A stretch of DNA of 13,732 bases, taken from the NCBI GenBank assembly GCA_016196885.1, contig JACPWU010000030.1, positions 1 to 13,732 on the forward strand, given 5' to 3'. The notes under the pieces were generated by a model. The model was not told where the DNA came from. It made no database searches and saw only the letters and a list, made by a program, of their open reading frames with translations. The number at the start of each line of letters is the position of its first letter. The stretch's first letter is position 1. Shown in pieces: positions 1-13,732 of this stretch. The position numbers and the translations under genes are program-made. The DNA is from Chlamydiota bacterium (lineage in GTDB: Bacteria; Auribacterota; JACPWU01).

Positions 1-10
1 AATCACCCTT

Positions 11-83
11 GTAGTCGCCCCATTTATGGGGCGGTCTATGACATTGGGGCATTGGGCATTGCCCGATAAATCGGGCGACTACA
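11..83 (-). repeat. Composite palindromic repeat, copy 1. It is inverted relative to the other copies: H2 hairpin, then H1 hairpin.
   Basis: GTAGTCGCCCCATTTATGGGGCG (11-33) and GCCCGATAAATCGGGCGACTACA (61-83) are the reverse complements of the H2 and H1 modules seen in the other six loci. The outer ends GTAGTCGCC / GGCGACTAC are mutually inverted. A degenerate terminal-IR-like AGTCATCATGAGTCAT follows at 84-99. Confidence 0.8.
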
Positions 84-141
84 AGTCATCATGAGTCATT
101 GTATAAGAAAGAGTAAAGACTATTTTCAGATGAAATGCGGG

Positions 142-1425
142 TTAAGGCAAGAGTTTGACAAGCAAATTGAAGGTTTTCTCAAGGGCCCCTTGATGCCAGG
201 ATAAAATTTCTTTGGCTTTGGCACCCAGGCGTTCCCGTTCTGAAGGAGAATTCAGTAGAGCATGAAGGGTTTCTTTTAGGAGAGCTGCATCTGTGACTTG
301 AATGGCCCCGCCCCATTCCGTAAAGGTGCTGGCCATGTCTTCAAAATTTTCCATGTGAGGGCCAAAAACAATGGGCTTTCCGAAACGCGCCGGCTCCAGA
401 AAATTTTGCCCCCCTTTGCGGGTCAGGCTTTTCCCGATAAAAACGACATCTGCAATGGAATAAATTTTTTCCAACTCTCCAACGGTGTCTACCACCAAAA
501 CATGATGAGAAGTTTGTAATTGAATCTTGGTTCTAAATTGAAAAGACAATCCTTTTTCTAAGAGCAGCTGGGCGACCTCATGGGAACGTTCAGGGTGCCG
601 AGGCACAAGAATCAAATAGAGTTGAGGAAAAACTTTTGCCAAATCTTGATAAATCTCTACGAGAATTTCTTCTTCCCCTGAATGCGTGCTGCCCGCCAAC
701 AAAATCAGAACACCTTGTGAAAATCCCAATTCTTCACGAAGAACATTTTTTTCAGACTCTTCCAGTGGCTCAAAATCATCTTTCTCATATTTTAAATTGC
801 CGACGACATGAACCCTGTTAGATTCAGCTCCCAGAAGCATCATTTTATTGGCCTCTTTGGCCGTAGGCCCCGTCATCAAAGAAAGCCCTTCGATAAAAGG
901 GGTGACAAAAAAACGGGCCTTTTGAAATTTTCGAAAGGAACGCAAGGACATTCGAACATTGATCAAAGCCACAGGAATTCTCTTGCGATAAACTTGCGAT
1001 AAAAAATTGGCCCATAACTCGCTCTCGGCCAAAACCACAAGACTCGGGTGAATCACATGAATGGCCCATGCGACCGAAAAATAGAAATCGAGGGGAAAAT
1101 AAAGAAGGGTGATGGAGTCCGCTAAATTTTCTTTTGCGATACGATTTCCAGTTCTCGTCACCGTGGTTAAAACAAGGTGATATTGAGGCTTTTCCTCCTG
1201 AAATTTCCTCAGCAAGGGAAGAATCGCCTTTACTTCGCCAACAGAGGCCGCATGAAACCAAATGGTTTTTCGCTTTTCTAGTTCTCTCACAATCGAAAAA
1301 GGGTAAAACCCCAACCTCATGGGAAGCCCTTCCCGCCATTTATCAGAAGAGATTAATTTGTACAAAAAATAAGGACTGGCGATGAGAAAAGAGATACAAA
1401 AGAGAATGTTGTACAGGATAAGCAT
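142..1425 (-). CDS. waaA: 3-deoxy-D-manno-octulosonic acid (Kdo) transferase, WaaA/KdtA
   Basis: Hallmark N-terminal motif IWFHAASVGEVKAILPLL, an LVLTTVTRTGNRIA segment, and C-terminal GGQNFLEPARFGKPIVFGPHMENFEDM. The track start at 1479 is a TTG. ATG at 1425 gives 427 aa starting MLILYNILF..., the hydrophobic N-terminus and length typical of WaaA. Confidence 0.9.
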   Translation of the reverse strand: MLILYNILFCISFLIASPYFLYKLISSDKWREGLPMRLGFYPFSIVRELEKRKTIWFHAASVGEVKAILPLLRKFQEEKPQYHLVLTTVTRTGNRIAKENLADSITLLYFPLDFYFSVAWAIHVIHPSLVVLAESELWANFLSQVYRKRIPVALINVRMSLRSFRKFQKARFFVTPFIEGLSLMTGPTAKEANKMMLLGAESNRVHVVGNLKYEKDDFEPLEESEKNVLREELGFSQGVLILLAGSTHSGEEEILVEIYQDLAKVFPQLYLILVPRHPERSHEVAQLLLEKGLSFQFRTKIQLQTSHHVLVVDTVGELEKIYSIADVVFIGKSLTRKGGQNFLEPARFGKPIVFGPHMENFEDMASTFTEWGGAIQVTDAALLKETLHALLNSPSERERLGAKAKEILSWHQGALEKTFNLLVKLLP

Positions 1426-1494
1426 AGTCTTATCGTCGTTCGTTGTTTGTCGTTTGTTTTTACGAAATACGAATGACAAACGACGAACGACTCA

Positions 1495-1704
1495 TTAAGC
1501 CCTAGGATGTGTTCCAATAAAATCTCTCATAAGGCCATATTCCCACATGGTCTCGACGCTGGCGACAGCGGCCCGCAATTCTACCGCAATCAATGGAATG
1601 CCTGCCAGAGAAATAATGATATCGGCGTTAATCACCAGTCCTTTGTCCAAAACCCGATCCAATAAATCTACGAGCGTCGCTCGACCTTGACGTGTGGGTT
1701 CCAT
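1495..1704 (-). CDS. GvpA-family gas vesicle protein (GvpJ/M/S-like minor paralogue)
   Basis: Core TLVDLLDRVLDKGLVINADIIISLAGIPLIAVELRAAVASVET matches the GvpA/J/M fold signature. ATG at 1704 is preceded by GGAGCGGAG-CAACAG. The upstream in-frame ATG at 1722 (75 aa) has no SD and lies in an AT-rich spacer, so the start is 1704 or 1722. Confidence 0.85.
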   Translation of the reverse strand: MEPTRQGRATLVDLLDRVLDKGLVINADIIISLAGIPLIAVELRAAVASVETMWEYGLMRDFIGTHPRA

Positions 1705-1776
1705 CTGTTGCTCCGCTCCCATTTATAATTAAAAATTAAGGAAAAGTTTATTTATTTTTAATTGATTCATTTGCCC

Positions 1777-2547
1777 TCAGGCAAATGAATAGGGTGGCCA
1801 AGGCCCTGTGAAACGAACGTCAAAACCTTGGATTTTCCCGATCTTTTCCAGTTCTCTCCCGAGAAGCACCACTTCGTCTTTCTCTTGCAGGCAGGAGAGA
1901 TTCATGATCATTTGTTTGGGTGGATTCTCTCGTCTGACTTTTTCGACATGGATTTCTTCAACACAATTGCGGATGCGCTGATAAAAATCCTTAAAATAGA
2001 CATTGGCCGCTTCTTCCAGTCGCTTTTTAATGATTTCAGCAAGTTTTCGTTCCAAAAGATAAGCGACCCCTTTGGGTTTGGACTGGATTTCCTTCTCCAG
2101 ATCCTGAATTTCTTTGTCATTGTGTCTAATTTTGGGAAGAACGATCGTAGGATCCCATATCACCTGTACACCATATTCCGCTTTACTTTTTAAACGCATC
2201 AATTTTCCACGAAGCTCTTCAGATTCTCTTTCCATCCAACCTTTAAGATTTTCACCCGCGGTCTTTCCGTCCATTGGCCGAATCACCATTCCAAAACTAA
2301 ATGGAAGAACAGTCTCATAACGCTCCCAGGCAATATCCACCACACTTTGATGAATCAAGAGCCCATCTGCAAGGACCTTTTGATCTTCAGATTGAATGGA
2401 CTTGGCCTCGCATTCCTCAACAACTGCAATCAGGCCTCGATGCAAAAGGGCCATGACAGGTTGTCCCCCAAGACCCCGAAGTTCCAGAGGTTCTTCCTGA
2501 TTCCCTTGGGCGAGACAATAGATATAAAGACCTTTATCGGTCATCAT
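1777..2547 (-). CDS. GvpF/GvpL family gas vesicle protein (paralogue 4)
   Basis: N-terminus GLYIYCLAQG..., LPFSFGMV, and C-terminal FDVRFTGPWPPYSFA are typical of GvpF/L. The track start at 2559 is a TTG that lies inside the RBS. ATG at 2547 follows GGAGGGAAAA. Confidence 0.85.
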   Translation of the reverse strand: MMTDKGLYIYCLAQGNQEEPLELRGLGGQPVMALLHRGLIAVVEECEAKSIQSEDQKVLADGLLIHQSVVDIAWERYETVLPFSFGMVIRPMDGKTAGENLKGWMERESEELRGKLMRLKSKAEYGVQVIWDPTIVLPKIRHNDKEIQDLEKEIQSKPKGVAYLLERKLAEIIKKRLEEAANVYFKDFYQRIRNCVEEIHVEKVRRENPPKQMIMNLSCLQEKDEVVLLGRELEKIGKIQGFDVRFTGPWPPYSFA

Positions 2548-2565
2548 TTTTCCCTCCAAATCAGA

Positions 2566-2635
2566 TCACTGTGCACGGCCCCATGAATGGGCGGCTACAT
2601 AATGGACGACACCTTTGAGTCAAGTGCATATGCCT
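2566..2635 (+). repeat. Composite palindromic repeat, copy 2. Right half only: H2 hairpin plus right terminal IR.
   Basis: GCCCCATGAATGGGCGGCTACA (2578-2599), then AATGGACGACACCTTTG, then AGTCAAGTGCATATGCCT (2618-2635). It fills the gvpK / gvpF-L gap and overlaps the last codons of gvpK. Confidence 0.8.
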
Positions 2636-2958
2636 TTTTCCTTATTCGTTTGGCGAGATGGAGCAATGCCATAAGGATCCGTTAAGCCTTGAACCATTGA
2701 ATCCACCCAATCATCTAATCCTTCCCGAACAGAACGAACAGCCTCCGTGACCCCCTGCTCTTCTTTCAAATGCTCAATCGCCTTATCCAACTCCATGAGG
2801 GTCACTCCAAGCCGATTGATTTCGTCTTCCGTAAGACTTCCCCCTTCCATTCTTTTAAGGGCTTGAATCCTCAAGGTGTCTCGAATCACCTCCACAATGG
2901 CCAAAACCAGGCCGAAGAGACCCTGTTTTAAATCTTTATCGTTCATTTCAAGTTTCAT
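2620..2958 (-). CDS. gvpK: Gas vesicle protein GvpK
   Basis: GLFGLVLAIVEVIRDTLRIQALKRMEGGSLTEDEINRLGVTLMELDKAIEHLKEE matches the conserved GvpK core. ATG start at 2958. The last four codons and the TGA stop lie inside repeat copy 2. Confidence 0.85.
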   Translation of the reverse strand: MKLEMNDKDLKQGLFGLVLAIVEVIRDTLRIQALKRMEGGSLTEDEINRLGVTLMELDKAIEHLKEEQGVTEAVRSVREGLDDWVDSMVQGLTDPYGIAPSRQTNKEKGICT

Positions 2959-2970
2959 GATGAGGTTGAC

Positions 2971-3153
2971 TTACCTCCCTTTCTTTCCAAACCTTCGATT
3001 CATTTCCTCTCGAATTTTTTTTATTCGACCCCCAAATATTTTGCTATTCTGGGCTTTTTGAAAGAAGGAACCAAAACCCGGAATCACCTTGCCAACCTTC
3101 TTCAAAATTTCATCCGCGACATCTTCTTTGTCTTTCTTATTCTCTTCAGACAT
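2971..3153 (-). CDS. Hypothetical small basic protein (60 aa) in the gvp operon
   Basis: ATG at 3153 is preceded by GGAGG with a 5-nt spacer. The track start at 3225 is a TTG whose extension would read through the left arm of repeat copy 3. The product MSEENKKDKEDV...PGFGSFFQK...GKKGR is charged with a Gly/Phe patch. I recognise no family. Confidence 0.5.
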   Translation of the reverse strand: MSEENKKDKEDVADEILKKVGKVIPGFGSFFQKAQNSKIFGGRIKKIREEMNRRFGKKGR

Positions 3154-3187
3154 GAATACCTCCTTTTTCAGCCTATGTGTTCCTATA

Positions 3188-3334
3188 AGGCTATGCAGTT
3201 GACTCAAGTACCTTTGGTCCGTCAAGTGTAGCCGCCCGATTTATCGGGCAAATCCATGCAAGGGGCAAGGCGCATTGCCCCATGAATGGGGCGACTACAA
3301 ATGAACGACATCTTTAAGTCAAGTGCATATGCCT
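3188..3334 (+). repeat. Composite palindromic repeat, copy 3 (full element, 147 bp)
   Basis: Left IR AGGCTATGCAGTTGACT (3188-3204). H1 TGTAGCCGCCCGATTTATCGGGC (3227-3249). Spacer AAATCCATGCAAGGGGCAAGGCGCATT. H2 GCCCCATGAATGGGGCGACTACA (3277-3299). Right IR AGTCAAGTGCATATGCCT (3317-3334). Confidence 0.85.
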
Positions 3335-3356
3335 ATATTCCTAACCTCCGACACTT

Positions 3357-3587
3357 CTATACTTTTTGTTCTGGAACCGGATGAGCTACCCTCATATCCG
3401 AGGGAAAGGCCAAACCCCATTTTGCCGCTGTTTCAAACGAGGCCAAGGCGGCCCGAATCTTAATGGAAAGAAGTTCCACATCGCAAAGTAAAATCACAAT
3501 ATCCGCGTTGATCACAAGCCCCTTATCGAGGATGCGCTCCACCACATCAGCCAATGAGTCTCCCTTTGTCGCGTGAGTGAATGGCAT
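3357..3587 (-). CDS. GvpA-family gas vesicle protein (GvpJ/M/S-like minor paralogue)
   Basis: SLADVVERILDKGLVINADIVILLCDVELLSIKIRAALASFET matches the GvpA-family core. ATG at 3587 immediately follows the TAA of the upstream gene (GAGGAGGCATAAATG), which suggests translational coupling. Confidence 0.85.
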   Translation of the reverse strand: MPFTHATKGDSLADVVERILDKGLVINADIVILLCDVELLSIKIRAALASFETAAKWGLAFPSDMRVAHPVPEQKV

Positions 3588-3839
3588 TTATGCCTCCTCA
3601 GGTCCAAAACCGGTGACATTAAACCCTTCATCCAGCGAAATCACATAACGGTTTTTATCAAAAATGGTCGGGTGACCCAATTTTTTCAGGTACTCGTTTT
3701 CTTCGGTCACTTCAATCGTTCCTTCCCATCCCATATCCGACTTCGCCAATTTCAAAACACGAATGGAGGCCGGATCCTTACCCAGCTCTTCCTGAACGAA
3801 TCCCGTGACCTTTACCTTCGCCTCATGAATATCAGACAT
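3588..3839 (-). CDS. gvpO: GvpO/GvpR-like gas vesicle protein
   Basis: Small acidic protein. MGWEGTIEVTEENEY...RYVISLDEGFNVTGF resembles the GvpO-family core (GW-x-V-x-VEV..., ...Y-x-V-x-LD). RBS AAGGAGGG lies 4 nt upstream of the ATG at 3839. Assigned from memory of the family signature. Confidence 0.6.
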   Translation of the reverse strand: MSDIHEAKVKVTGFVQEELGKDPASIRVLKLAKSDMGWEGTIEVTEENEYLKKLGHPTIFDKNRYVISLDEGFNVTGFGPEEA

Positions 3840-3854
3840 GAAACCCTCCTTCTC

Positions 3855-4112
3855 TTACAATTCTTCATCATTTGACTCTTCCCCCTCTTCTTCGACGGGT
3901 TCCTGACTCCTTTTGTCTATCTCATCCAGAATCCCCAAAATCTCCTTTTCCTTTAAATTATATTCTTCCTCCCCTATTTCACCCATATCCAATTTTGATT
4001 GGAGCAAAAGAAGACGCTCCATCACTTTCTCTCGGCTGCCGTATAATTCATCCTCGGCCATATCCTTAATCTTCTTGCCAAGCCAAATCGCCAAATCATC
4101 AAAGAAAAACAT
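3855..4112 (-). CDS. gvpG: Gas vesicle protein GvpG
   Basis: MFFFDDLAIWLGKKIKDMAEDELY...LLLLQSKLDMGEIGEEEYNLKEKEIL is the typical GvpG pattern (hydrophobic N-terminus, ELY, GEI-x-EEEY), followed by an acidic tail. Confidence 0.85.
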   Translation of the reverse strand: MFFFDDLAIWLGKKIKDMAEDELYGSREKVMERLLLLQSKLDMGEIGEEEYNLKEKEILGILDEIDKRSQEPVEEEGEESNDEEL

Positions 4113-4116
4113 GATT

Positions 4117-4926
4117 TTAAGACCTTTCGATCAGTTCCGCCTTCGACTGGAATTTTCCGCCTTCCTCCTCCAACTGAATGACAATCTCAACAAAGTTAAA
4201 GGGCGGAATAGGGCCCACATACTTAAACTGAATCTGGGAACCGTACCTGCCTTCTAGGTTGTTCACGACCTCATCAAAAGAGGCCTGTTTTTCATCCTCT
4301 ACAAGGAATGCAACATTCATAATATTGACATCCCCCAAAACATTTTGTTTTTTATGTTGAACAGCCCAAGGGGCAAGTTCATGGATCAGCGTTTCAGCCA
4401 TTTGAATGTTCTTCTCCTCCAAGGCCTCTTTCACCACATGCCCCACATCAATCAGAGCGGTGTGCCTTTCCTGTAAAGCCATTTTCATAATCTTCTCTTT
4501 AGCGGCAATCACCTTTTCGTTTTCCTGACTTAATTTTGAGAAAACCTCCTCCAGATTTTTCCACCTCGCCCTGAGGCCCAGCTCACTCTTACCTTGAATC
4601 TTTGCAAAGGTCTCCTGAAACTCCCTCACCTTCTCCTGACGCTTTAAAACCTGACGGACAATCTGATCCTTCGTCTCAGCCAGGGTGCAAAATTTCACGG
4701 GGAGCACCGGCTGAATTTGCATCACCTTTTCATTGACCAACTGATGAGCCATTAAAAAATCACGCGTCAGGTGATATTTCTTCATGGGCTCTTCTGAGAC
4801 CACAGCCGCAAAATCCCCATCGCTTACAACCTCAATCGCACTCGTGCCGTGAATCCCCTGAGCTTCAATCTTCAGAGGCGCTTTATTTTCAATCACGCAA
4901 TAGACCCAAAATCCCATCTTTTCCAT
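4117..4926 (-). CDS. GvpF/GvpL family gas vesicle protein (paralogue 3)
   Basis: MEKMGFWVYCVIEN..., LPVKFCTL, and C-terminal IQFKYVGPIPPFNFV. The track start at 4950 is a GTG. ATG at 4926 is preceded by AAGGAG with an 8-nt spacer. Confidence 0.85.
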   Translation of the reverse strand: MEKMGFWVYCVIENKAPLKIEAQGIHGTSAIEVVSDGDFAAVVSEEPMKKYHLTRDFLMAHQLVNEKVMQIQPVLPVKFCTLAETKDQIVRQVLKRQEKVREFQETFAKIQGKSELGLRARWKNLEEVFSKLSQENEKVIAAKEKIMKMALQERHTALIDVGHVVKEALEEKNIQMAETLIHELAPWAVQHKKQNVLGDVNIMNVAFLVEDEKQASFDEVVNNLEGRYGSQIQFKYVGPIPPFNFVEIVIQLEEEGGKFQSKAELIERS

Positions 4927-4950
4927 AACATCAGCTCCTTCATTAACCAC

Positions 4951-5058
4951 TGCCCCATAAATGAGGCGACTACATCACGATTCACTACCTGCCCCATGAA
5001 TGGGGCGACTACAATGGCCTGCTACTTGTAGTCGCCCGATTTATCGGGCAATCCATGC
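4951..5058 (+). repeat. Composite palindromic repeat, copy 4 (rearranged order H2, H2, H1)
   Basis: GCCCCATAAATGAGGCGACTACA (4952-4974), GCCCCATGAATGGGGCGACTACA (4991-5013), TGTAGTCGCCCGATTTATCGGGC (5027-5049), followed by AATCCATGC as in the other copies. There are no terminal IRs. Confidence 0.8.
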
Positions 5059-5065
5059 TACGCAG

Positions 5066-5812
5066 CTATTCATTCCAATGTAGTTGCAGGGTTACAAAAC
5101 TAAAGGGGGCCATGGGCCCCACCGATTTGACGTCCAGCCTGTCCCCAAATTTCTCAGCCAATTTTTCAGCGGATTGATCAAATTCCTTGAGCCAATCCTT
5201 ATCAATTAAAAAGGCTTCATGGATGACAACCTCATCGGCCCCAGACTCCATCGTTTTAGAGCCCTTTGCCAATTTTTTAAACGGCACGAGATAGCCTTCA
5301 CCCTCTGCCGCCTTTTTTTTCTCCAACGCAGCCGCTACCAGTTCCCCCGCGTGAATGAGGTCTCTTTGAGTTTGAGGGGGTTTAGCGGATTTCAAGTCTC
5401 GAATCTTTCGATTCTCCTGGGCAATTTCTTGATAAATTTTCTTCATGTCTTTCCAACGAACCTTGATGTCCATTTCAACTTTTCCATCCATATCTCTCAA
5501 AAGATCCGTCAACTCCTTCGAATTCCTTTCCAAAAATGAAATAATTTCGTCTGAGGTATCGGCCACCGTGCAGAAACGCATCGGAAGAATATTATATAAC
5601 TCCATCACCTTCTCGATCACCTTCATGTGGGCGGTCATATTTTCTCTGGAAAGGACGTAATGATCCATCGAGGCATTGCTCACCACGGCCGCTAGGCCCT
5701 CAGAACCAAGGGTCATCACCTCGTCCGATTGCCCCCCAATCCCAATGGGGCCAAAATTCTCAGCCCCATTGCTGGAAATAATCCCGTAAATATATTTTCC
5801 CACATGCTTCAT
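5066..5812 (-). CDS. GvpF/GvpL family gas vesicle protein (paralogue 2)
   Basis: MKHVGKYIYGIISSNGAENFGPIG..., LPMRFCTV, and C-terminal LDVKSVGPMAPFSFV. ATG at 5812. Confidence 0.85.
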   Translation of the reverse strand: MKHVGKYIYGIISSNGAENFGPIGIGGQSDEVMTLGSEGLAAVVSNASMDHYVLSRENMTAHMKVIEKVMELYNILPMRFCTVADTSDEIISFLERNSKELTDLLRDMDGKVEMDIKVRWKDMKKIYQEIAQENRKIRDLKSAKPPQTQRDLIHAGELVAAALEKKKAAEGEGYLVPFKKLAKGSKTMESGADEVVIHEAFLIDKDWLKEFDQSAEKLAEKFGDRLDVKSVGPMAPFSFVTLQLHWNE

Positions 5813-5815
5813 AAC

Positions 5816-6820
5816 CTAACCCTTTCCATTGATTTGAAACAAGTCCACCTTCCAGGGCTGACGACCTCCCTGACAGTAATCTAGCAGCAGGTCATACGCC
5901 TCGTGAATTTTTTGGAATTCCTGATCGTCCAATTCGGGATGAATGTCCGGATGGCATTTCCGTGATTTCTCTTTATAGGCGTGTTTCACCGTTTCCAAAT
6001 TTTGATCGCCTTCCAAACCTAACACCTCCTTCGCCCGGCGGATCTCTCGCTCCTCAAATTCCTTGACCAAAATCATAGAAAAACTATAAAGCGGCAGAGG
6101 TCCAATGCAACGAAAATTAAATTTTCCCCCACATATCCGATCCAGATGCTCGACGGTCTTAAAAAACGAATCCTCCTGGCCATTTTTGAGCAAAAAGGAG
6201 GCGTTTAAAACCATGTCGTCATTCATCGTGTCATGTAAGGCGCTCTCTTGACTCACTTTTTTTAAGGAAAACAGAATCTCGTCAGCCCATTGATTCGCAT
6301 AGTCCTTTAATTTTGCCGCTAGGCTCATCCCCAAGGCAATCTTTTCATCCTTTTCTCTCTCAGGCGAAAATGTTTGAATCGCTTTTATCCGACTTTCAAT
6401 TTCTGGATCGCCTTCAGCCATTCCTTTTAGAACCTCCCTGGAATCCCAAGTGACCACGACATCCGTCTCGAAACAATCCTTCATCTTTGAAATCCACTCC
6501 TCAAGACGCCTCTCGTTTTGTAAAAGGACCGCACGTACTTCTTCCTGATCCCTTAAGACAGTCCCAAATTTGCACGGGAGAATAAATTGGCTCTTCATAA
6601 TCATCTCCAGCGTCTCCTGATGCGTTAATAAGGTCTTGACCAATCTTTCTTTGCTCAAAAGTCCGAAATCTTCCTCAGGCGCGGGTCCAATCACGGCGGC
6701 AATATTTCGACTGGGCAGAGCTTCAACCTTTCCCCTTCCAAAGTCCGCTGTTTCAAAACCGATTGCGCCAAAGTCTTTTAACGCGTTCGATTCAACAATC
6801 CCGTAAAGATAAGAACGCAT
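5816..6820 (-). CDS. GvpF/GvpL-family domain fused to a C-terminal DnaJ-type J-domain
   Basis: Residues 1-250 look like GvpF/L (SYLYGIVESNALKDFGAIG, LPCKFGTV, FNFRCIGPLPLYSF). Residues ~258-316 read AKEVLGLEGDQNLETVKHAYKEKSRKCHPDIHPELDDQEFQKIHEAYDLLLDY, a J-domain with HPD encoded at 5945-5953 (CAT CCG GAC on the minus strand). Confidence 0.85.
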   Translation of the reverse strand: MRSYLYGIVESNALKDFGAIGFETADFGRGKVEALPSRNIAAVIGPAPEEDFGLLSKERLVKTLLTHQETLEMIMKSQFILPCKFGTVLRDQEEVRAVLLQNERRLEEWISKMKDCFETDVVVTWDSREVLKGMAEGDPEIESRIKAIQTFSPEREKDEKIALGMSLAAKLKDYANQWADEILFSLKKVSQESALHDTMNDDMVLNASFLLKNGQEDSFFKTVEHLDRICGGKFNFRCIGPLPLYSFSMILVKEFEEREIRRAKEVLGLEGDQNLETVKHAYKEKSRKCHPDIHPELDDQEFQKIHEAYDLLLDYCQGGRQPWKVDLFQINGKG

Positions 6821-6831
6821 ATCTTAACCTC

Positions 6832-9012
6832 TCACTTTTTAGCCTTCCGAGCGATTTGAATCGCCTCTTGGAAATGTTCTTTCCTCACAACAAATTTCTC
6901 CACCAATCCATTGGACTTATCTTGATGCTCTCCAATAAATTCCCTAATCGCCAAGGTCACCGCCTGCCTGCAAAGGGCTGCAATATCGGCCCCGCTGGCC
7001 CCTTCTGTTTCTCGAGCCAGCGCTTCTTTGTCCACCTTTTTTTCGACTGGGGTTCCCTTCAAATGAATCTGAAATATCCCCTCTCGTGCTTTAAGATCCG
7101 GAGGACCCAGCATAATAATATGATCAAATCGGCCCGGCCGGATCAGGGCCGGGTCAATCAAATCCACTCGATTGGTCGCACCCAAGATAATCACGCCTCG
7201 AAGCTCCTCCGTCCCATCTAACTCTGTTAAAAATTGACTAAGGGTCCGACCCATAACCCCGGAATCACCATCGCCTGAGCCCCTTCTCGGAGCCATGGAA
7301 TCCATCTCATCAAAAAATAGAACACAGGGAGCCGCGGACCTTGCCTTTTTAAAAATCTCCCGAACGCCTTTTTCAGTCTCCCCCACATATTTCGAAACCA
7401 ATTCAGGGCCTTTAATCGAAATGAAATTGACCTCGGACTCCGTTGCCAACGCCTTTGCGAGTAAAGTTTTCCCCATTCCTGGAGCACCTATCAGAAGAAC
7501 CCCTTTATTGGGTTTGAGATTTGCCTTCTCGAAAACCTTCGCATAGTGAAGGGGCCACTCTGCTCCCTCGATGAGCAATTTTTTCACAGCTTCAAGTCCC
7601 CCAATATCCGACCAGCGCACATGGGGAGTCTCTAGTGAGACCTCACGAATGGCGGAGGGCTCCACCTCATTCAATGCCTGTGTAAAATGTTCTTGTGTCA
7701 CTTCCAGGGACTCGATCACTTCAAGGGGAAGGTCTTCGATGCGCATTCCTCTTTTTTCCAAAACCTGTCTCAGGCAGCTCATCGCGGCCTCCCTGGCCAA
7801 TGCCTCAACATCAGCCCCCACATAGCCATGGGTGATATCCGCTATCCTCTCCAAACTCACATCTTCGGCCAGGGGCATTCCACGCGTATGGATTTCAAGT
7901 ATTTTAAGCCGTCCATTGCGATCCGGAATTCCAATCGTAATCTCGCGATCAAACCGGCCGGGCCGCCTCAAAGCAGGATCCAAAAGATCCGGCATATTGG
8001 TCGCCCCAATCACAATCAGCTCGCCCCGCGATTTTAATCCATCCAAAAGAGACAAAAGCGTGGCGACAATTCTTTTCTCTACCTCCCCCTGGACATTCGC
8101 CCTCTTGGGGGCCACTGAATCAATTTCATCAATGAAGATAATGGCTGGGGCATGGAGCCTCGCCTCTTCAAAAATGGATCGTAAATGACTTTCGGATTCG
8201 CCGTAAAATTTATGCACGATCTCAGGGCCATTGATCGTGTAGAAATTGGCCTCCGATTCATGAGCCACCGCGCGGGCAATCAAGGTCTTTCCTGTCCCTG
8301 GAGGTCCATAGAGAAGAACCCCCTTCGGGGGATCAATTCCCAATCGCTCAAACACCTCAGGATGTTTAAGGGGCAGTTCCACCATCTCCCGAATTCTCTG
8401 AATCTCCCTGGTCAAGCCACCAATGTCCTCGTAAGAAACACCGGGACGAGTCTTTTCTTCACCCTTTACAGCCTCCCCTTCAATTTTGATTTGCGTTGAA
8501 GATGTGATGAGAAGAGGACCCTCGGGCGAAGTATTCACCACTTCAAAATCTCGAGTCCTCGATCCAAAAAGAGTCGCGCGGACCCGATCCCCTTTAAGGA
8601 CAGGCAACCCCTCCAGGAGACGGCCCACATAAGGATCAGACGAAGGCAGGGCACCTTGTTTTGAGGAACTCAGCGTTGTTTTGAGCCACAAGGTTCTCGC
8701 GGGCTCAGCAGTTGTAGCAAAAACTAAAACCTTCCCATCTAAGCCAATTTTTGCATTTTCGCGAGTGACTCCATCAATCTGAATGTAATGCTTCCCTCGA
8801 TACTCCTCGTAGGTCGGAGCCAGCTTCGCCACCGTCTTATGCTTGCCTTCAATAAATATAATATCCCCGACATGGCAGCCCAATTTTTCCATATCGGACG
8901 GATCCAAGCGGGCAATCCCACGCCCTACATCCCTCACCAAAGCTTCTGCAACACGGAAAGTGAGGGAATCAGACTTAGAATCAGCTTGTTCCTTTTTTAC
9001 AGTACTGGCCAT
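6832..9012 (-). CDS. Cdc48/VAT/p97-type AAA+ ATPase (N domain plus D1 and D2 rings)
   Basis: N domain: RVAEALVRDVGRGIARLDPSDMEKLGCHVGDIIFIEGK. D1: Walker A GPPGTGKT (8284-8307), Walker B IIFIDEID, pore loop KFYGESE, PALRRPGRFDREI. D2: Walker A GAPGMGKT (7465-7488), Walker B VLFFDEMD, pore loop SKYVGETE, PALIRPGRFDHII. RBS GAGGTG lies 5 nt before the ATG at 9012. Confidence 0.92.
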   Translation of the reverse strand: MASTVKKEQADSKSDSLTFRVAEALVRDVGRGIARLDPSDMEKLGCHVGDIIFIEGKHKTVAKLAPTYEEYRGKHYIQIDGVTRENAKIGLDGKVLVFATTAEPARTLWLKTTLSSSKQGALPSSDPYVGRLLEGLPVLKGDRVRATLFGSRTRDFEVVNTSPEGPLLITSSTQIKIEGEAVKGEEKTRPGVSYEDIGGLTREIQRIREMVELPLKHPEVFERLGIDPPKGVLLYGPPGTGKTLIARAVAHESEANFYTINGPEIVHKFYGESESHLRSIFEEARLHAPAIIFIDEIDSVAPKRANVQGEVEKRIVATLLSLLDGLKSRGELIVIGATNMPDLLDPALRRPGRFDREITIGIPDRNGRLKILEIHTRGMPLAEDVSLERIADITHGYVGADVEALAREAAMSCLRQVLEKRGMRIEDLPLEVIESLEVTQEHFTQALNEVEPSAIREVSLETPHVRWSDIGGLEAVKKLLIEGAEWPLHYAKVFEKANLKPNKGVLLIGAPGMGKTLLAKALATESEVNFISIKGPELVSKYVGETEKGVREIFKKARSAAPCVLFFDEMDSMAPRRGSGDGDSGVMGRTLSQFLTELDGTEELRGVIILGATNRVDLIDPALIRPGRFDHIIMLGPPDLKAREGIFQIHLKGTPVEKKVDKEALARETEGASGADIAALCRQAVTLAIREFIGEHQDKSNGLVEKFVVRKEHFQEAIQIARKAKK

Positions 9013-9108
9013 CTTTCACCTCGTTTCCAAAGCCCAATCGTACGCTCGAAACCCCAACACCCAAGGGAACCGCGCAAAAGCCGGGGTTTGGAAAAGAATA
9101 TATTCATT

Positions 9109-9227
9109 AGCATATGTATTTGACTCTAAAGCGTAGCCGCCCGATTCATCGGGCAATCCCCCATGCACGGCCCCATGAATGGGGCGACTACAAATGGACG
9201 ACATTTTTAGGTCAAATACATGAGCCT
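9109..9227 (+). repeat. Composite palindromic repeat, copy 5 (full element, 119 bp)
   Basis: Left IR AGCATATGTATTTGACT (9109-9125). H1 GCGTAGCCGCCCGATTCATCGGGC (9131-9154). H2 GCCCCATGAATGGGGCGACTACA (9170-9192). Right IR AGGTCAAATACATGAGCCT (9209-9227). Confidence 0.85.
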
Positions 9228-9233
9228 GTAGAT

Positions 9234-9788
9234 CTATTTTTCTTTCTTCCTGAGCTTCAACTCCAACATCCCATTTTTATAACTGACTTGGGCACCCGCT
9301 TCCTCCACGGGTGTTTTAAGCAAAATCTCTTTGCTGTACTTACGCTTTCCCGTCGTGGATAAATTCACCACATCCCCATGAATCTCGTAATGAATCTCAC
9401 TCTCGCTTACCCCTGGCAGCTCGGAAACAATTTGCACTGTAGTACTATCCTCAAAAACATCCACAATGGGCTCTCGGGTCTCTTCCACGACCGGACCTTT
9501 GGGGGTTTTTTTAATATTGCCAAAGGCCTCAACGACAGGTTTTGTCTTTCCACCGGCCCCTGCCATGGTCCGAACGGTGAAGCCAAACACCCCTTTCATA
9601 TCCTTCTGGCCAGGCACTGTAAATTCACCCTCCTTTTGAATCACGCCTCCCTCTTCCTTAATCTTGTCAGCAAGTTCAATTAAATTCCCCAATCCTTGAA
9701 ACAACCCGCCAAAAAGGCCCCCCGTCTTAAACTCAAAGGGAAATTTAACCTCTTCACCCGACTCATCCTTTTTCTTTTCTTTTTTCAT
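9234..9788 (-). CDS. Hsp20/alpha-crystallin family small heat-shock protein
   Basis: Alpha-crystallin domain: VDVFEDSTTVQIVSELPGVSESEIHYEIHGDVVNLS...AQVSYKNGMLELKLRKK (the A-x-x-x-NG-x-L-x-x-x-L-x-K signature). N-terminal Lys/Glu-rich and Gly/Phe-rich extension (GGLFGGLFQGLG). The track start at 9797 is a GTG. ATG at 9788 follows GGAGGTGGAGGAT. Confidence 0.85.
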   Translation of the reverse strand: MKKEKKKDESGEEVKFPFEFKTGGLFGGLFQGLGNLIELADKIKEEGGVIQKEGEFTVPGQKDMKGVFGFTVRTMAGAGGKTKPVVEAFGNIKKTPKGPVVEETREPIVDVFEDSTTVQIVSELPGVSESEIHYEIHGDVVNLSTTGKRKYSKEILLKTPVEEAGAQVSYKNGMLELKLRKKEK

Positions 9789-9830
9789 ATCCTCCACCTC
9801 CAGTCTCTCTCTTTCAGTGAATTAAAATTT

Positions 9831-10132
9831 AGGCATACGTACTTGCCCCACGCATCCTCGTAGCGTAGCCGCCCGATTTATCCCCCCACCCAATCCAGCT
9901 GTTATCTTTAGCACGTTCGTAAGCTTATGACCCGTGCATTGATCGCTAAACAATCCCGCCACCTTCGATAGATTGGGTGGGGGGATGAATCGGGCAAATC
10001 CATGCAAGGGGCACGGCCCCATAAATGGGGCGACTACATCCGTCAAGCGTAGTCGCCCGATTTATCGGGCAACATCCATGCACGGCCCCATAAATGGGGC
10101 GACTACAAATGGACTCAGTGCGTAAGCCCATA
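9831..10132 (+). repeat. Composite palindromic repeat, copy 6. Two tandem H1-H2 units inside one pair of degenerate terminal IRs; the first H1 is expanded into a 25-bp-arm hairpin.
   Basis: Left IR AGGCATACGTACTTGCCC (9831-9848). Expanded H1 arms GCCCGATTTATCCCCCCACCCAATC (9871-9895) and GATTGGGTGGGGGGATGAATCGGGC (9971-9995). H2 (10015-10038). H1 GCGTAGTCGCCCGATTTATCGGGC (10047-10070). H2 (10085-10107). Degenerate right IR TCAGTGCGTAAGCC (~10115-10128). Confidence 0.8.
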
Positions 10133-10135
10133 AAA

Positions 10136-10468
10136 TTAATACGCCAGACTCATCTTCTTCACCCGACTGCCACTTTCTCGCAATTCTTTTTGCTCAGCTT
10201 TTTTGTGAGGCCGCCTGCCTGAAAGCTTTCGATACTGACTCTCAGTCCCCCGAATATCCGCTTCAATCCCTTTCATAATCTCCTTGGCTTCGTGCAACTG
10301 ATGCGTCAAGGTGTTGATTTTGCTGAGCAAACTCTGACGCCGGACCGTGAGAATATAAAGCCGATTGACCTGTTGAACCGTTCCGGTATTCTTAAGAGTA
10401 ACGGTCCGGATATCTGAAGAGCCTCGACTGGTTGAAGATCTCCTCAATAATTTCATTTGCACTGGCAC
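10136..10468 (-). CDS. Hypothetical coiled-coil protein directly downstream of gvpN (position of gvpV in Serratia/Anabaena-type clusters)
   Basis: Intact ORF 18 nt downstream of gvpN, with AAGGAGGG upstream. The start is ambiguous: GTG 10468, GTG 10462 or ATG 10456. It has a basic N-terminus and a helical segment LLSKINTLTHQLHEAKEIMKGIEADIRG. The GvpV assignment rests on synteny only, not on recognised sequence. Confidence 0.45.
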   Translation of the reverse strand: MPVQMKLLRRSSTSRGSSDIRTVTLKNTGTVQQVNRLYILTVRRQSLLSKINTLTHQLHEAKEIMKGIEADIRGTESQYRKLSGRRPHKKAEQKELRESGSRVKKMSLAY

Positions 10469-10486
10469 GGCCCTCCTTTTTTTCTT

Positions 10487-11440
10487 TTAAGGGTCTCTTT
10501 TCGGTTTCTTCCCATTCAAACCAAATTGATGAATGGCTCTCTCCACCACTTCCTTGACCTTGGCTGAAGTTGTCTTACTTCCGATTCTCGAAGTTTCTGA
10601 ACAAAGAACATCCAGACAAATCTGTTTAAAAAGAGAATGGTCCGCACCCAGACAAACCCCTTTTCCATAATCCTGAACGGTTTTGGCAATCATGATACAG
10701 CCCCGAATGGTGGGCGCAAATTCATACTGGCCATGCTCCCTCAAATAGCGAACGATCTTCACAATCTTTAAGGCGACTTCCCTGGAAAGTCCTGATCTTC
10801 TTGCAGTAATCGCGCATTCTGTCTCCTCATCAAAGGGCTCCAGATCCAGTGTCACCATCCGATCCCGAAGCGCATCTTGAGAGCGATGAACGCCGGCGTA
10901 TTCCTCCGGATTCGAAGTAAAAATAGCCCGAAAATTGGGATGAACCTTGATACAACTCTCTCCATCGTTTCTACCCCCTCCGGGAAGATCCAGAATTCCC
11001 TCCTGAAGAACCGAAAGAAGAATATTATTGGCCTCAGGCCTTGAACGGGTAAATTCGTCATAAATCAGCGTATAACCATTTTCCACAGCGACCGTCAAAC
11101 GGTTATCCACCCATCGCTTAGAAGAGTCTTCTTCAACCTTCAAAACAGAAGCAATAAAATTATCTCGAAGTTTGCTCACATGATAACCCGTCTGAGCCCC
11201 CACCAATTCGTCTGTGGTCAGTTGTTCATCTCCATGGATCATAATGACGGGCCTTTCTAAGAGCTCGGCAACACGCAGGGCCGATGTCGTTTTCCCTGTC
11301 CCCGAAATCCCTCTAAAATGGACAGGAAAACCCGCATTCAAATAATGGAGGGCCCTCCCTTGAATTCCTTTAACGAAGGGCGTCTCTACAAAATCCGCCC
11401 CCGCCTTCGGTTGTAAAATTGTAATCTCACTGGTTTCCAT
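10487..11440 (-). CDS. gvpN: Gas vesicle AAA+ ATPase GvpN
   Basis: FVETPFVKGIQGRALHYLNAGFPVHFRGISGTGKTT (Walker A encoded at 11288-11311), Walker B TLIYDEFTRS, and FRAIFTSNPEEYAGVHRSQDALRDR. Length (317 aa) and motifs are typical of GvpN. Confidence 0.9.
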   Translation of the reverse strand: METSEITILQPKAGADFVETPFVKGIQGRALHYLNAGFPVHFRGISGTGKTTSALRVAELLERPVIMIHGDEQLTTDELVGAQTGYHVSKLRDNFIASVLKVEEDSSKRWVDNRLTVAVENGYTLIYDEFTRSRPEANNILLSVLQEGILDLPGGGRNDGESCIKVHPNFRAIFTSNPEEYAGVHRSQDALRDRMVTLDLEPFDEETECAITARRSGLSREVALKIVKIVRYLREHGQYEFAPTIRGCIMIAKTVQDYGKGVCLGADHSLFKQICLDVLCSETSRIGSKTTSAKVKEVVERAIHQFGLNGKKPKRDP

Positions 11441-11515
11441 TTTAAACCTTTAGGGGAGATCAGGCCCTCCGACATCGCGTCTGGGGGCGTGATCTTCCGC
11501 GAAATTTTTTGATCC

Positions 11516-11917
11516 TTAATGCTTCTTGGCTGTCTTTGGCGTAGCCTTCTGGGCCATATTTCTCACACTCGTATCGAAGTGCCGCCTCTTCTCGGCCATC
11601 TCCTTTTCAACCTTCTGAAAGGCCTGATGACCCGCTTTGCATTCCTGATGAAACGCCTTGCTCTCCTTATGGAATCCCTGACACAACTTACCCACACTGT
11701 CGGTCAGGTTACCCACGAAAGTTCCTAAATCCGCATGCAACCCTCTTGCCATTGCCTTGCGATCTTTCCTCGTATGATCTAGAAACTTATGGGCATCATT
11801 CGTTATTCGATTAACCTCGGCGACATTATGCCCAAGGAAATTAATACGGTCATTGAACGAAGAGAGGATGCTTCCTCCCAGATTGGCCATACCTGTTGCA
11901 AATCCCGTGAATGCCAT
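11516..11917 (-). CDS. Hypothetical alpha-helical His/Lys-rich protein between the gvpC-position ORF and gvpN
   Basis: AAGGAG lies 9 nt upstream of the ATG at 11917; the ATG at 11926 abuts the SD with no spacer. It contains three consecutive heptads, GFHKESK / AFHQECK / AGHQAFQ. I recognise no family. Confidence 0.5.
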   Translation of the reverse strand: MAFTGFATGMANLGGSILSSFNDRINFLGHNVAEVNRITNDAHKFLDHTRKDRKAMARGLHADLGTFVGNLTDSVGKLCQGFHKESKAFHQECKAGHQAFQKVEKEMAEKRRHFDTSVRNMAQKATPKTAKKH

Positions 11918-11938
11918 GATATTCATCTCCTTTCCTAA

Positions 11939-12562
11939 TCAGGATAAACTTCGTATCCTGTCACCATCTCTTTCCCTGATGTCTTCTCGCCTTCCGCCGG
12001 TACAAGTCAAATATTCATCGGCCAAAGCGGCGGTCTCGAGCCTAAGCTTAGAACCTAAATCATCAAGGGTCTTTTTGAATTCCCTTAAAGTAAGCTCATC
12101 CTTTTTCTGTAAAAGATACTGCATCTTCTCCCCAATCAGGGCTTGTTCTTCTTGAAAACACCTTAAACTAACCCTCGTATCGGCAATGGAACCCTGAATC
12201 CCCTTCTCCAAAGAAGGGACATCTAAAAAGATCCCCTCCTCGACCCCTCTCTTCAACTGAGCCGCCAACTCTTTTTGCCTCTTTAGAAAAGAATGCAAAG
12301 TCAGCCTAATCTCTTTCTCTCTAGCCCGCTGATAAGCTAAAAGAGGCATCGTGAGCACATCAAAATCCTTTTTCCTAAACGACTCAACTTTGGACAATGT
12401 TTCCCTTAAATTTTCCTGAACCATTTGATTGGCAACACGACATTGGTCGAGCATTTCCATACTTTTTTCGATAATCTCCTGTACGGCACAAATGTTCTCA
12501 TCGTAACCCCTGATCGCGTCTGCTGTAATCCTCTTAATCTCCTCCAACTCTGGTGCTCTCAT
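11939..12562 (-). CDS. Hypothetical alpha-helical protein immediately downstream of gvpA (gvpC position)
   Basis: The track start at 12616 is a GTG. ATG at 12562 is preceded by GGAGGAG with a 5-nt spacer (207 aa). The protein is charged and helical, with a weak recurring motif: ESFRKKD (60-66), HSFLKRQ (90-96), REFKKTL (160-166). LTLHSF and LTLREF lie 70 residues apart. Confidence 0.5.
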   Translation of the reverse strand: MRAPELEEIKRITADAIRGYDENICAVQEIIEKSMEMLDQCRVANQMVQENLRETLSKVESFRKKDFDVLTMPLLAYQRAREKEIRLTLHSFLKRQKELAAQLKRGVEEGIFLDVPSLEKGIQGSIADTRVSLRCFQEEQALIGEKMQYLLQKKDELTLREFKKTLDDLGSKLRLETAALADEYLTCTGGRREDIRERDGDRIRSLS

Positions 12563-12665
12563 GAAAACTCCTCCACTTTTCTTTGGAAAAGCTTGGTTTG
12601 GCAAAGTCAAGCTCACCTGAAATCATCCGCTAAACTCGTGTCTGAGGTCGGCTCGACAAACCATT

Positions 12666-12684
12666 TCCCTCGTCTCCCGAGGGA
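12666..12684 (-). terminator. Putative stem-loop attenuator just downstream of gvpA
   Basis: On the sense strand, TCCCTCG-GGAGA-CGAGGGA (7-bp GC-rich stem, 5-nt loop) begins 10 nt after the gvpA stop. It is followed by AAATGGTTTG, so there is no clean U-tract. A partial terminator after gvpA is a common arrangement, but this one is weak. Confidence 0.3.
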
Positions 12685-12694
12685 TTCCTTTTCC

Positions 12695-12910
12695 CTACGC
12701 AGGCTGAGCCGCCGTCTGTGTAAGACCGATCGCTTCAGCATACTTAAGATAGGTCTCGACACCCGCGCATACGACACGGGCTTCCACGCTCAGGAACTCA
12801 ATTCCCACCAACGAGACCCTGGCCCATGCATCGATCACGATTCCCTTATCCAGAATCCGATCGACAACCTCTGCTAATGAAGAACTCGCCATTGATTTTT
12901 GAACTGCCAT
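12695..12910 (-). CDS. gvpA: Major gas vesicle structural protein GvpA
   Basis: [71 protein letters not shown] is nearly canonical GvpA over its whole 71-aa length. ATG at 12910 is preceded by AAGGAAGGTG. The track start at 12958 is a TTG extension that would overlap the predicted transcription start. Confidence 0.95.
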
Positions 12911-12961
12911 TTGACACCTTCCTTTCTTCTTTTGACCTCTTCCAAGCGTCGGAAGCAATAA

Positions 12962-12977
12962 AGCAATATGCGTACCA
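12962..12977 (-). promoter_or_regulatory. Sigma-54 (RpoN) -24/-12 promoter upstream of gvpA
   Basis: The minus strand reads TGGTACG-CATA-TTGCT against the consensus TGGCACG-N4-TTGCW, matching 11 of 12 specified positions with exact GG/GC spacing. The GC of the -12 element is 53 nt upstream of the gvpA ATG, which implies a leader of about 40 nt. Confidence 0.6.
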
Positions 12978-13043
12978 AAAATTTAGATGTCATCGCAAAG
13001 GCACTAAGCACGTGATGATCTCACTATGGCAATAGTAAACAAC

Positions 13044-13162
13044 AGGCATATGCACTTGACTTTTTGTAGTCGCCCGATTTATCGGGCTATCAACGGATTG
13101 CCCCATGAATGGGGCGACTACACTTCACGGATCAAGGTACTTAAAGTCAAGTGCATGTGCCT
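13044..13162 (+). repeat. Composite palindromic repeat, copy 7 (full element, 119 bp; the cleanest copy)
   Basis: Left IR AGGCATATGCACTTGACT (13044-13061). H1 TGTAGTCGCCCGATTTATCGGGC (13065-13087). Spacer TATCAACGGATT. H2 GCCCCATGAATGGGGCGACTACA (13100-13122). Right IR AGTCAAGTGCATGTGCCT (13145-13162). Confidence 0.9.
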
Positions 13163-13300
13163 TATAAGCAAAACAGGGTTTTCAGAGATTTTAGAACTGG
13201 AAAAATCGGCAAAGGATTCCCTCATTCAGGAATTAAATCCTGATTTCTGGGTATAAAAGCGTAGGGGTATTTTGTGGGTTTAGTTCACGCGGGATTTAGA

Positions 13301-13732
13301 TTATTGTTGACCCTCCCACATGACTTTAAGCAGAAAGATCGTATCTTTTCTCAAATTGGCTTTAGCCCACACCTTCTGTTTTTCATCCAGCAGTTCACCC
13401 ATGCCGGAGAGGATGTGCCTGTCCCCCATTTTTTCCAAAAGGTCGATACATTTCTGCAAAAAATTCTTGAATGACATGCCAACTCTGGTTTCGACAATCC
13501 CTTTGTTGATGGGCCAATTTTTCTCCAAAAAATGCCAAGTGTCATAAATGTCGCGATTCGTTTTACCCATTCGTTCAACCATCGCCACCAGCTTGTGCGC
13601 CACCATGTCCTCCCGTGTCATAACCTTCATGGAAATACCCAGATAGGCCTTCACTTCATACCTTGATCCGAATTCCCTTCGGTTGATTTCCACCTTGATA
13701 TTCTGAGCACCCAGGACTTTATTATCATAGGA
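13301..13732 (-). CDS. AbiEii/AbiGii-family nucleotidyltransferase toxin, C-terminal part (5' end lies beyond the window)
   Basis: The frame stays open to the window edge: ...SYDNKVLGAQNIKVEINRREFGS.... EDMVAHKLVAMVERMGKTNRDIYDTWHFL resembles the conserved AbiEii (type IV TA nucleotidyltransferase) region. The M at 13693 in the track is an internal GTG (Val). Confidence 0.55.
   Translation of the reverse strand, partial: SYDNKVLGAQNIKVEINRREFGSRYEVKAYLGISMKVMTREDMVAHKLVAMVERMGKTNRDIYDTWHFLEKNWPINKGIVETRVGMSFKNFLQKCIDLLEKMGDRHILSGMGELLDEKQKVWAKANLRKDTIFLLKVMWEGQQ

Follow-up and report, generated by a model that had tools for sequence, protein, structure and literature searches.

The stretch analyzed here, called the window, is the whole of a 13,732-bp contig from a metagenome-assembled genome (MAG) labeled "Chlamydiae bacterium" at NCBI. 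It carries a gas-vesicle (gvp) gene cluster with palindromic repeats at seven loci (A to G). We consider it likely that the seven loci are nested, non-autonomous mobile DNA, in which a pair of repetitive extragenic palindromic (REP) hairpins is carried in a miniature transposable element bounded by inverted repeats (MITE) of the IS1595 family, which landed recently, and that the composite has spread as a unit.

We conceived that such a composite would work in two layers. The core would be a head-to-head pair of 22-nt REPs, the kind of substrate that REP-associated tyrosine transposases (RAYTs) of the HUH/Y1 type recognize in its folded single-stranded form and cleave at an adjoining CA or CT. 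The shell would be the 18–24-bp terminal inverted repeats (TIRs) of IS1595 type that enclose the pair at five loci, making it a MITE that a DDE transposase provided in trans would move into AT-rich sites with an 8-bp target duplication. In this lineage the composite would then have invaded, as one unit, the short gaps of a gvp cluster that had been compact before, and the REP-only cluster at locus D would be older, having arisen in the common ancestor of two Chlamydiae-labeled MAGs.

The core is a GTAG-tagged REP, as seen from its anatomy, from hairpin covariation and from the wide distribution of its class. Searching the window with the pattern GTAGYCGCCCSATTYATSGGGC and at most one mismatch gives 14 GTAG-tagged hairpin units of 22 nt in the seven gaps, and the same search in 200 dinucleotide-preserving shuffles gives a mean of 0 units. 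An earlier note on this DNA had described two recurrent hairpin modules at seven loci, and all of them were found where it placed them. The first module, H1, is GTAGYCGCCCGATTYATCGGGC, and the second, H2, read on its own strand, is GTAGTCGCCCCATTYATGGGGC. Each unit opens with GTAG and two further bases, followed by a perfect stem of 7 bp whose tip is 2 nt long; the hairpin can equally be read as a stem of 6 bp closed by a TT(T/C)A loop. The palindrome is GCCCGAT-TY-ATCGGGC in the G type and GCCCCAT-TY-ATGGGGC in the C type, H1 and H2 differing by a compensated G-C to C-G swap within each small stem. With this swap each small hairpin stays intact, but a mismatch arises in the pairing between two units.

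The units are arranged as inverted pairs with GTAG ends outward, always a G type with a C type. All 14 start with GTAG, and because they read TGTAG...CTACA, CA lies at both ends. In minimum-free-energy folds, two units pair along their length, with mismatches at the positions that distinguish the G and C types. The pair is described as a heterodimer, like the REP doublets known as REPINs, because the central stem pair is G-C in one unit and C-G in the other. [quoted passage not shown]

The same hairpin class is found far beyond the window. An exact scan for the 22-mer over one genome per species (596 Gb) gave at least 53 stretches, where about one chance match is expected at this information content. 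The class occurs in MAGs under about 13 phylum-level labels; those with the 22-mer include Stahlbacteria, WOR-3, Zixibacteria, Nitrospirae, Nitrospinota, Poribacteria, Planctomycetota, Elusimicrobiota, Doudnabacteria, Actinomycetota, and Gamma- and Deltaproteobacteria. The loci of other genomes again have the layout GTAG-hairpin ... hairpin-CTAC, with a different partner stem. No exact match to the 22-mer was found in viral contigs, and Rfam, run in E-value mode on the whole window, returned only sub-threshold miRNA-type matches to generic hairpins.

Related units were chosen solely by the pattern GTAG-N2-N5-ATTYAT-N5, which itself fixes GTAG. Leaving aside units that match the search seed, 63 remain, and 46 of these are complementary at 5/5 stem positions. 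When 48 distinct units were examined over 7 pairs, 95.8% of the stem cells were paired, compared with 26–42% in slid controls. Double-sided stem changes numbered 65, compared with 16 ± 3 in shuffles, and none of 500 shuffles reached 65. Across the 48 units the tip T-T-(T/C)-A is constant, as is the GTAG tag that the selection pattern fixes. Incidentally, one unclassified MAG (L040, 5850–6000) contains five or more REP units that follow each other head to tail every 34 nt, separated by an identical 12-nt spacer, AGGTTTCTCTCT, an arrangement unlike the inverted pairs seen elsewhere; the array lies just upstream of a 357-aa open reading frame (ORF; L040 4743–5816).

The TIRs of the shell originate from a widespread insertion sequence (IS) of about 1 kb that belongs to the IS1595 family. 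The outer inverted repeat AGGCATATGCACTTGACT is exact at 2618–2635 (−), 3317–3334 (−) and 13044–13061 (+), has one mismatch at 13145–13162 (−), and has four mismatches at 3187, 9108 and 9831. The shell is present at five of the seven loci (B, C, E, F and G), and loci A and D are without it. Its 17-mer GGCAYATGCACTTGACT occurs in more than 120 metagenome stretches, many times as inverted pairs about 1 kb apart. In one of them (L066), repeats at 953 and 1960 enclose a 308-aa ORF that matches DDE_Tnp_IS1595 (1e-30), Zn_ribbon_IS1595 (2.7e-12) and NCBIfam NF033547 (2.5e-58). The closest annotated relatives are plasmid-borne IS1595-family transposases, and one of them, annotated as IS1595 in RefSeq and located on a plasmid of Legionella antarctica, has at its ends GGGCTATGCAGTTGACT, the same variant as at window 3187–3204.

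For reading 8-bp duplications, the IS end was taken as two bases plus GGCATATG. Full IS copies then show perfect 8-bp duplications, TTTTATTA (L105/L124) and TAGTGTTT (L160/L163), and a REP-free MITE (L100) shows the 8-bp duplication TTTGTAAA. Several metagenomes contain short MITEs that have these ends and no REP. In 570 kb around 120 IS1595 TIR matches, no TIR-bounded element contains a REP, and therefore the shell and core families are normally independent. No autonomous IS1595 copy is visible on the window contig; we infer that an IS1595 transposase acts in trans in the source genome. The earlier note had offered REP-like mosaic elements and MITEs as two likenesses for one element. Both structural ideas were right, but they apply to different layers, the core being the REP/REPIN-type pair and the outer repeats being the MITE. 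Its suggestion of a non-autonomous mobile element is borne out by the match of the TIRs to full-length, roughly 1-kb copies that encode the DDE_Tnp_IS1595 transposase.

The two layers appear to travel together in this window. Loci B, C, E and F share the same junction from H2 through a linker to the TIR (family D2) and have related left linkers, and their targets differ. An unrelated organism (L005, 55% GC compared with 46%) shows the same arrangement, in which a TIR of IS1595 type accompanies the G/C REP pair and the CATGCATGG spacer of the window, with TGATGA duplicated. When 32 REP dimers in other genomes were examined, a flanking inverted repeat of at least 9 nt was found at three, and the general rule that REP dimers sit in palindromic shells was dropped on this count.

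All seven loci are regarded as insertions because a sister genome has only locus D, the G site is empty there, and distant clusters are element-free. The sister is another Chlamydiae-labeled MAG (L175) with a colinear cluster, in which the GvpF-DnaJ protein is 89% identical. It has 3 REP units in 21 kb, and six of the seven loci are absent from it. At G, 125 bp have been cleanly inserted at one point of the sister sequence (position 3841), which is a clean empty site, and C is an insertion relative to the sister, where the gap is 21 bp. In the sister, the gap of locus E holds unrelated sequence, and that of locus F holds a different 118-bp palindrome. B replaces 17 nt of the gvpK/gvpF overlap present in the sister. 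GvpK is 93% identical to that of the sister over residues 1–107, and its last five residues, KGICT, with the stop codon (2620–2622) are encoded by the TIR at 2618–2635. One insertion, B, has rewritten the last five codons and the stop of gvpK, and the description of all loci as intergenic in the earlier note fails here.

Two distant colinear clusters, one of an Eisenbacteria MAG (L186) and one other (L187), share about 50% identity with the window. Neither has any REP or TIR in its gvp cluster, and their gaps are 30–66 bp long as compared with 115–340 bp in the window. The gap of locus D is also element-free in both (30–37 bp); therefore D is an insertion as well, predating the split of the two Chlamydiae-labeled genomes. 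Target-site duplications of 8 bp were read at C (TGTTCCTA, 3178–3185, and TATTCCTA, 3336–3343; 7/8), at F (TTAAAATT, 9822–9829, and ATAAAATT, 10130–10137; 7/8) and at G (GTAAACAA, 13035–13042, and ATAAGCAA, 13164–13171; 6/8). Empty sites in orthologous clusters and target-site duplications had both been named in the earlier note as things to look for.

The sister has palindromic repeats of its own (L175 3430–3968, 7001–7118, 7674–7802 and 16548–16776), such as inverted repeats of TAGGCTGTAGGCTGTTAG and others of the AAATCAAAA type. They occupy gaps that hold REP/MITE composites in the window, these gaps having been struck independently in both lineages, and one further palindromic element of the sister lies in a gap that is empty in the window.

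RAYT genes were searched for in several ways. None is in the window. A tblastn search of 389 kb of REP-bearing loci, with an E. coli RAYT sequence as the probe, found one true RAYT (L006), which is flanked by another REP class. True RAYT genes (NF047646, 94 bits) are present in genomes carrying the hairpin class of the window. The GTAG hairpins that border the RAYTs of L006, L177–L181, L184 and L185 share the TTYA loop, but their stem is shorter and they lack the 2-nt spacer. In Stahlbacteria-like genomes these RAYT genes (NCBIfam REP_Tyr_transpos; L006 1400–2120) keep a conserved place on the chromosome, beside an ABC transporter. Hairpins of the form GGAGTAG-stem-TTYA-stem are arrayed at their borders and make up a second REP class, found alongside that of the window. 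The exact REP class of the window was not at the borders of four sampled REPtrons, and the ORFs between distant inverted REP pairs at five loci are ordinary genes. By analogy with known REPtrons, a RAYT would act on the core hairpins and mobilize them.

If transcribed, the intact elements would form strong stem-loops, as the earlier note had said. Their predicted RNA folds on the coding strand range from −39 to −70 kcal/mol with z from −4.8 to −9.0 (A, −39 kcal/mol and −5.7; C, −69.7 and −8.0; E, −58.3 and −6.5; G, −61.9 and −9.0). On the other hand, the statement does not extend to locus B, which has no significant RNA fold (z +0.46). No U tract or T run follows the hairpins at the elements. 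In a terminator scan, none of 23 terminator-like sites coincides with a REP unit, the total being not above that of shuffles (15.5 ± 4.3), and one weak match overlaps the degenerate left TIR of F (9831–9848). Intrinsic terminators, which are G+C-rich hairpins followed by a U tract, were thus rejected. A promoter scan found no promoter-like site in the elements, where a TTGACT within the TIR is without an acceptable −10 partner.

These folds bear on the proposal of the earlier note that the elements partition the gvp operon. The elements would then be selected RNA devices, stabilizers or processing sites like those of bacterial interspersed mosaic elements (BIMEs), which split the gvp transcript and set the ratios of Gvp proteins. 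Such a role seems unlikely to us. REPs are reported to act on mRNA in enterobacteria (PMC8266576), all loci lie between co-directional genes, and strong folds are predicted for the intact copies; locus B, however, is a decayed half element without significant structure, and the elements lack U tracts and terminator-like sites. Locus D is identical at 137/139 nt in both Chlamydiae-labeled genomes, placing it in the top 4% of windows, and the other palindromes of the sister in several of the same gaps could mean a convergent demand for hairpins. Nevertheless, six of the seven loci are missing in the sister, and all seven are missing in the two distant colinear clusters. The target duplications at three loci and the clean empty site mark products of transposition, and one insertion damaged the 3′ end of gvpK. 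The conservation pattern argues for passengers tolerated in permissive gaps rather than a designed partition. An incidental effect of the hairpins on gvp mRNA is possible because intact copies would be very stable if transcribed.

Another way to arrive at the nested arrangement, separate RAYT-mediated insertion of REP dimers into the centers of resident IS1595 MITEs with palindromes as the preferred target, seems to us very improbable, and less likely than movement of the composite as a unit: GTAG dimers do occur in longer palindromes in Anabaena variabilis and Thermomicrobium roseum (PMC3733652), a dimer of L007 is inside an unrelated palindrome, the internal arrangement of G differs from those of C, E and F, and the further element in a REP loop at F indicates that hairpin tips get hit, but independent insertions would not be expected to produce the one H2-linker-TIR junction common to B, C, E and F, the REP-free TIR-bounded elements around the IS1595 TIR matches oppose it, and so does the scarcity of flanking inverted repeats at REP dimers elsewhere (three of 32).

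Several observations weigh against a recently landed composite that spread as a unit. With the linkers as reference, element G has the opposite orientation to C, and in this frame its G- and C-type units are swapped, an exchange that is not simply explained by a single composite ancestor. The same flip bears on the claim of the earlier note that six of seven loci share one orientation, which stands for the H1-to-H2 order only and is not significant (binomial p ~0.12). The target duplications in the window are all imperfect, and that for E (5/8) was not accepted. The counterpart of D in the sister (L175 11756–11894) is more conserved than the cluster average of 88.8%, which could reflect constraint; as proof of function it is only suggestive, since conservation is as high in 4% of 139-nt windows and identity along the cluster ranges from 76% to 98%. 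As for the transposases, no RAYT bordered by the exact REP class of the window was found, the sampled ones being flanked by the shorter-stemmed class, and a RAYT profile search gave none labeled Chlamydiae among the best 120 of 3566 relatives. Finally, the analysis covered one 13.7-kb contig of the source genome.

The loci are individually as follows. Locus A (10..84) is a naked head-to-head REP dimer without an IS1595 shell, with a C-type unit at 11–32 (+) and a G-type unit at 61–82 (−). It is 10 nt from the contig end, downstream of waaA, and is absent in the sister. Locus B (2563..2636) is a decayed right half consisting of a degenerate H2 (GCCCCATGAATGGGCGGCTAC, ~2579–2599), linker B and the right TIR at 2618–2635. 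Locus C (3187..3335) is a full composite, which starts with the left TIR at 3187–3204 (the GGCTATGCAGTTGACT variant) and a 23-nt linker A, continues with a G-type unit at 3228–3249 (+), a spacer, a C-type unit at 3277–3298 (−) and linker B, and ends with the right TIR at 3317–3334. Locus D (4951..5058) is a naked REP cluster without a shell between two gvpF paralogues, with C-type units at 4952–4973 (−) and 4991–5012 (−) and a G-type unit at 5028–5049 (+).

Locus E (9108..9227) is a full composite with the variant TIRs AGCATATGTATTTGACT ... GGTCAAATACATGAGCCT, which enclose a G-type unit at 9133–9154 (+), a C-type unit at 9170–9191 (−) and linker B. Both of its TIR arms (9108–9125 and 9210–9227) share two changes (GCACTTG to GTATTTG) and are still complementary; these paired changes could come from a different IS1595 subfamily or from a concerted change inside the palindrome. 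Locus G (13044..13162) is a full composite with the left TIR at 13044–13061, an inverted linker A and the right TIR at 13145–13162, having a G-type unit at 13066–13087 (+) and a C-type unit at 13100–13121 (−) inside.

Locus F (9831..10129) is a composite with degenerate TIRs, the right arm (TCAGTGCGTAAGCC) included, and two tandem REP dimers. Its units are an interrupted H1 from 9865, a C-type at 10016–10037 (−), a G-type at 10049–10070 (+) and a C-type at 10085–10106 (−). Where the two dimers join, the end of linker A recurs as TCCGTCAAGC. The H1 is interrupted in its loop by a nested insert of 95 bp (9883..9977), which has its own 13-bp inverted repeat, CCCCCACCCAATC ... GATTGGGTGGGGG, and is flanked by GATTTATC and GATGAATC. 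A 121-bp palindromic element in a different gvp gap of the sister (L175 6547–6667) has ends (ACCCCCACACCAAACCC) like those of this insert; homology between the two was rejected, as similarity is limited to the termini and is weak internally.

Nearly all genes of the window are on the minus strand. The gene list of the earlier note has Pfam support for waaA, three Gas_vesicle (GvpA/J) genes, four GvpL_GvpF genes (one DnaJ-fused), GvpK, GvpG, a Cdc48-type double AAA ATPase, a GvpN-like AAA_5 protein and AbiEii, the match for Hsp20 being weak. Window 142–12958 is a complete gas-vesicle cluster that includes Cdc48, the GvpN-like protein and the GvpF-DnaJ fusion, and it is colinear with the clusters of L175, L186 and L187. 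A full-text literature search found no paper linking gas vesicles with chlamydiae. The sequence from 3651 to 13732 is reproduced by an independent NCBI contig (JACOUD010000011.1) with 99.99% identity and one mismatch. The window starts 10 nt from the REP dimer of A, and the contig of this second assembly (L054), with its end at window ~3651, stops about 300 bp from element C; both contig ends fit assembly breaks at multi-copy or dispersed repeats, which is only a hint. Between the gvpA/J-like gene and waaA, a 57-nt near-perfect hairpin (1435–1491; 27-nt arms, 85% complementary) has no relation to the REP or TIR families, is absent at the sister locus and has only sub-threshold Rfam matches.

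It is conceivable, if doubtful at present, that a REP pair captured in a MITE of a DDE transposon multiplies, and perhaps crosses genomes, without its own tyrosine transposase. REPINs are usually regarded as strictly vertically inherited. If true, capture in a MITE would be a horizontal vehicle for REPINs and might help explain one 22-nt REP across about 13 phylum-level labels; this wide phylogenetic spread of the hairpin class is to us the most interesting point. Both kinds of element are already known, and what is new here is that an IS1595 MITE carries a heterodimer of GTAG REPs. Two unrelated classes of miniature mobile DNA, one hairpin-based and moved by HUH enzymes and the other inverted-repeat-based and moved by DDE enzymes, could thus fuse and spread as one unit, which would bear on how REP populations are founded and maintained. 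The GTAG REP class is extended to many uncultivated phyla, its conservation following the substrate rules of group-3 RAYTs. For annotation, dense and strongly folding repeats between genes look regulatory, and here a sister genome reveals that they inserted recently and that one of them changed the end of a gene. For heterologous expression of the gvp cluster, the elements would be dispensable candidates for removal.

Among known systems, the core most resembles the GTAG REP superfamily and REPINs (Di Nocera 2013, PMC3733652; Bertels & Rainey 2011, PMC3116915). In the GTAG superfamily, stems are 6–9 bp, loops are often TY, and the dimers are head to head, including heterodimers with different stems (PMC3733652). 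The elements here likewise have a 5′ GTAG by a short perfect palindrome with a 2–4-nt loop, GTAG-outward head-to-head dimers that are foldable as one long hairpin, heterodimers differing in the stem, tandem dimers (as at locus F) and, occasionally, a longer enclosing palindrome. On the other hand, the hosts here (MAGs labeled Chlamydiae, Stahlbacteria, WOR-3, Zixibacteria, Poribacteria and others) are outside the Proteobacteria-centered sets, one 22-mer is common to many phyla, and the palindrome around the dimer can be recognized as an IS1595 end that has target duplications.

The layout agrees with the recognition rules measured for the group-3 REPtron Mb of Marinomonas sp. MWYL1 (Corneloup 2021, PMC8266576). 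Its TnpAMb requires in REPMb a GTAG, two spacer bases, a perfect stem and a loop T12-T13-N14-A15 in which only the third base is free; it tolerates stem swaps and cuts at CT or CA beside the hairpin (PMC8266576). The family of the window has the same GTAG, two spacer bases, perfect stem, T-T-N-A loop and adjoining CA/CT, with only the third loop base varying (T/C), and its stem is 6–7 bp as compared with 5 bp in Mb. This likeness is one of recognition rules and does not by itself demonstrate a shared transposase.

The alternation of two REP types in opposite orientation is like that of Y and Z in the BIMEs of E. coli. The E. coli y/z REPs are imperfect palindromes with an AA-GC bulge (PMC8266576), and the elements here have no sequence relation to enterobacterial Y/Z REPs or linker motifs and no Rfam matches; membership in E. 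coli-type BIMEs was thus rejected, the alternation of two unit types being the only analogy. The shell is like the IS1595 family and its MITEs (NCBIfam NF033547; ISCsp2-like and Legionella plasmid copies), with TIRs (TA)GGCATATGCACTTGACT or GGGCTATGCAGTTGACT, an 8-bp target duplication, AT-rich targets and short transposase-less derivatives. As a difference, the copies in the window enclose a REP dimer and not a remnant of a transposase gene. The 95-bp insert at 9883–9977 is a foreign element in a REP loop, as are IS1397 and ISPpu9/10 (Tobes & Pareja 2006, PMC1525189). Compared with such REP-targeting IS elements, the nesting of the composite is reversed, as here the REP pair lies inside an IS-derived element.

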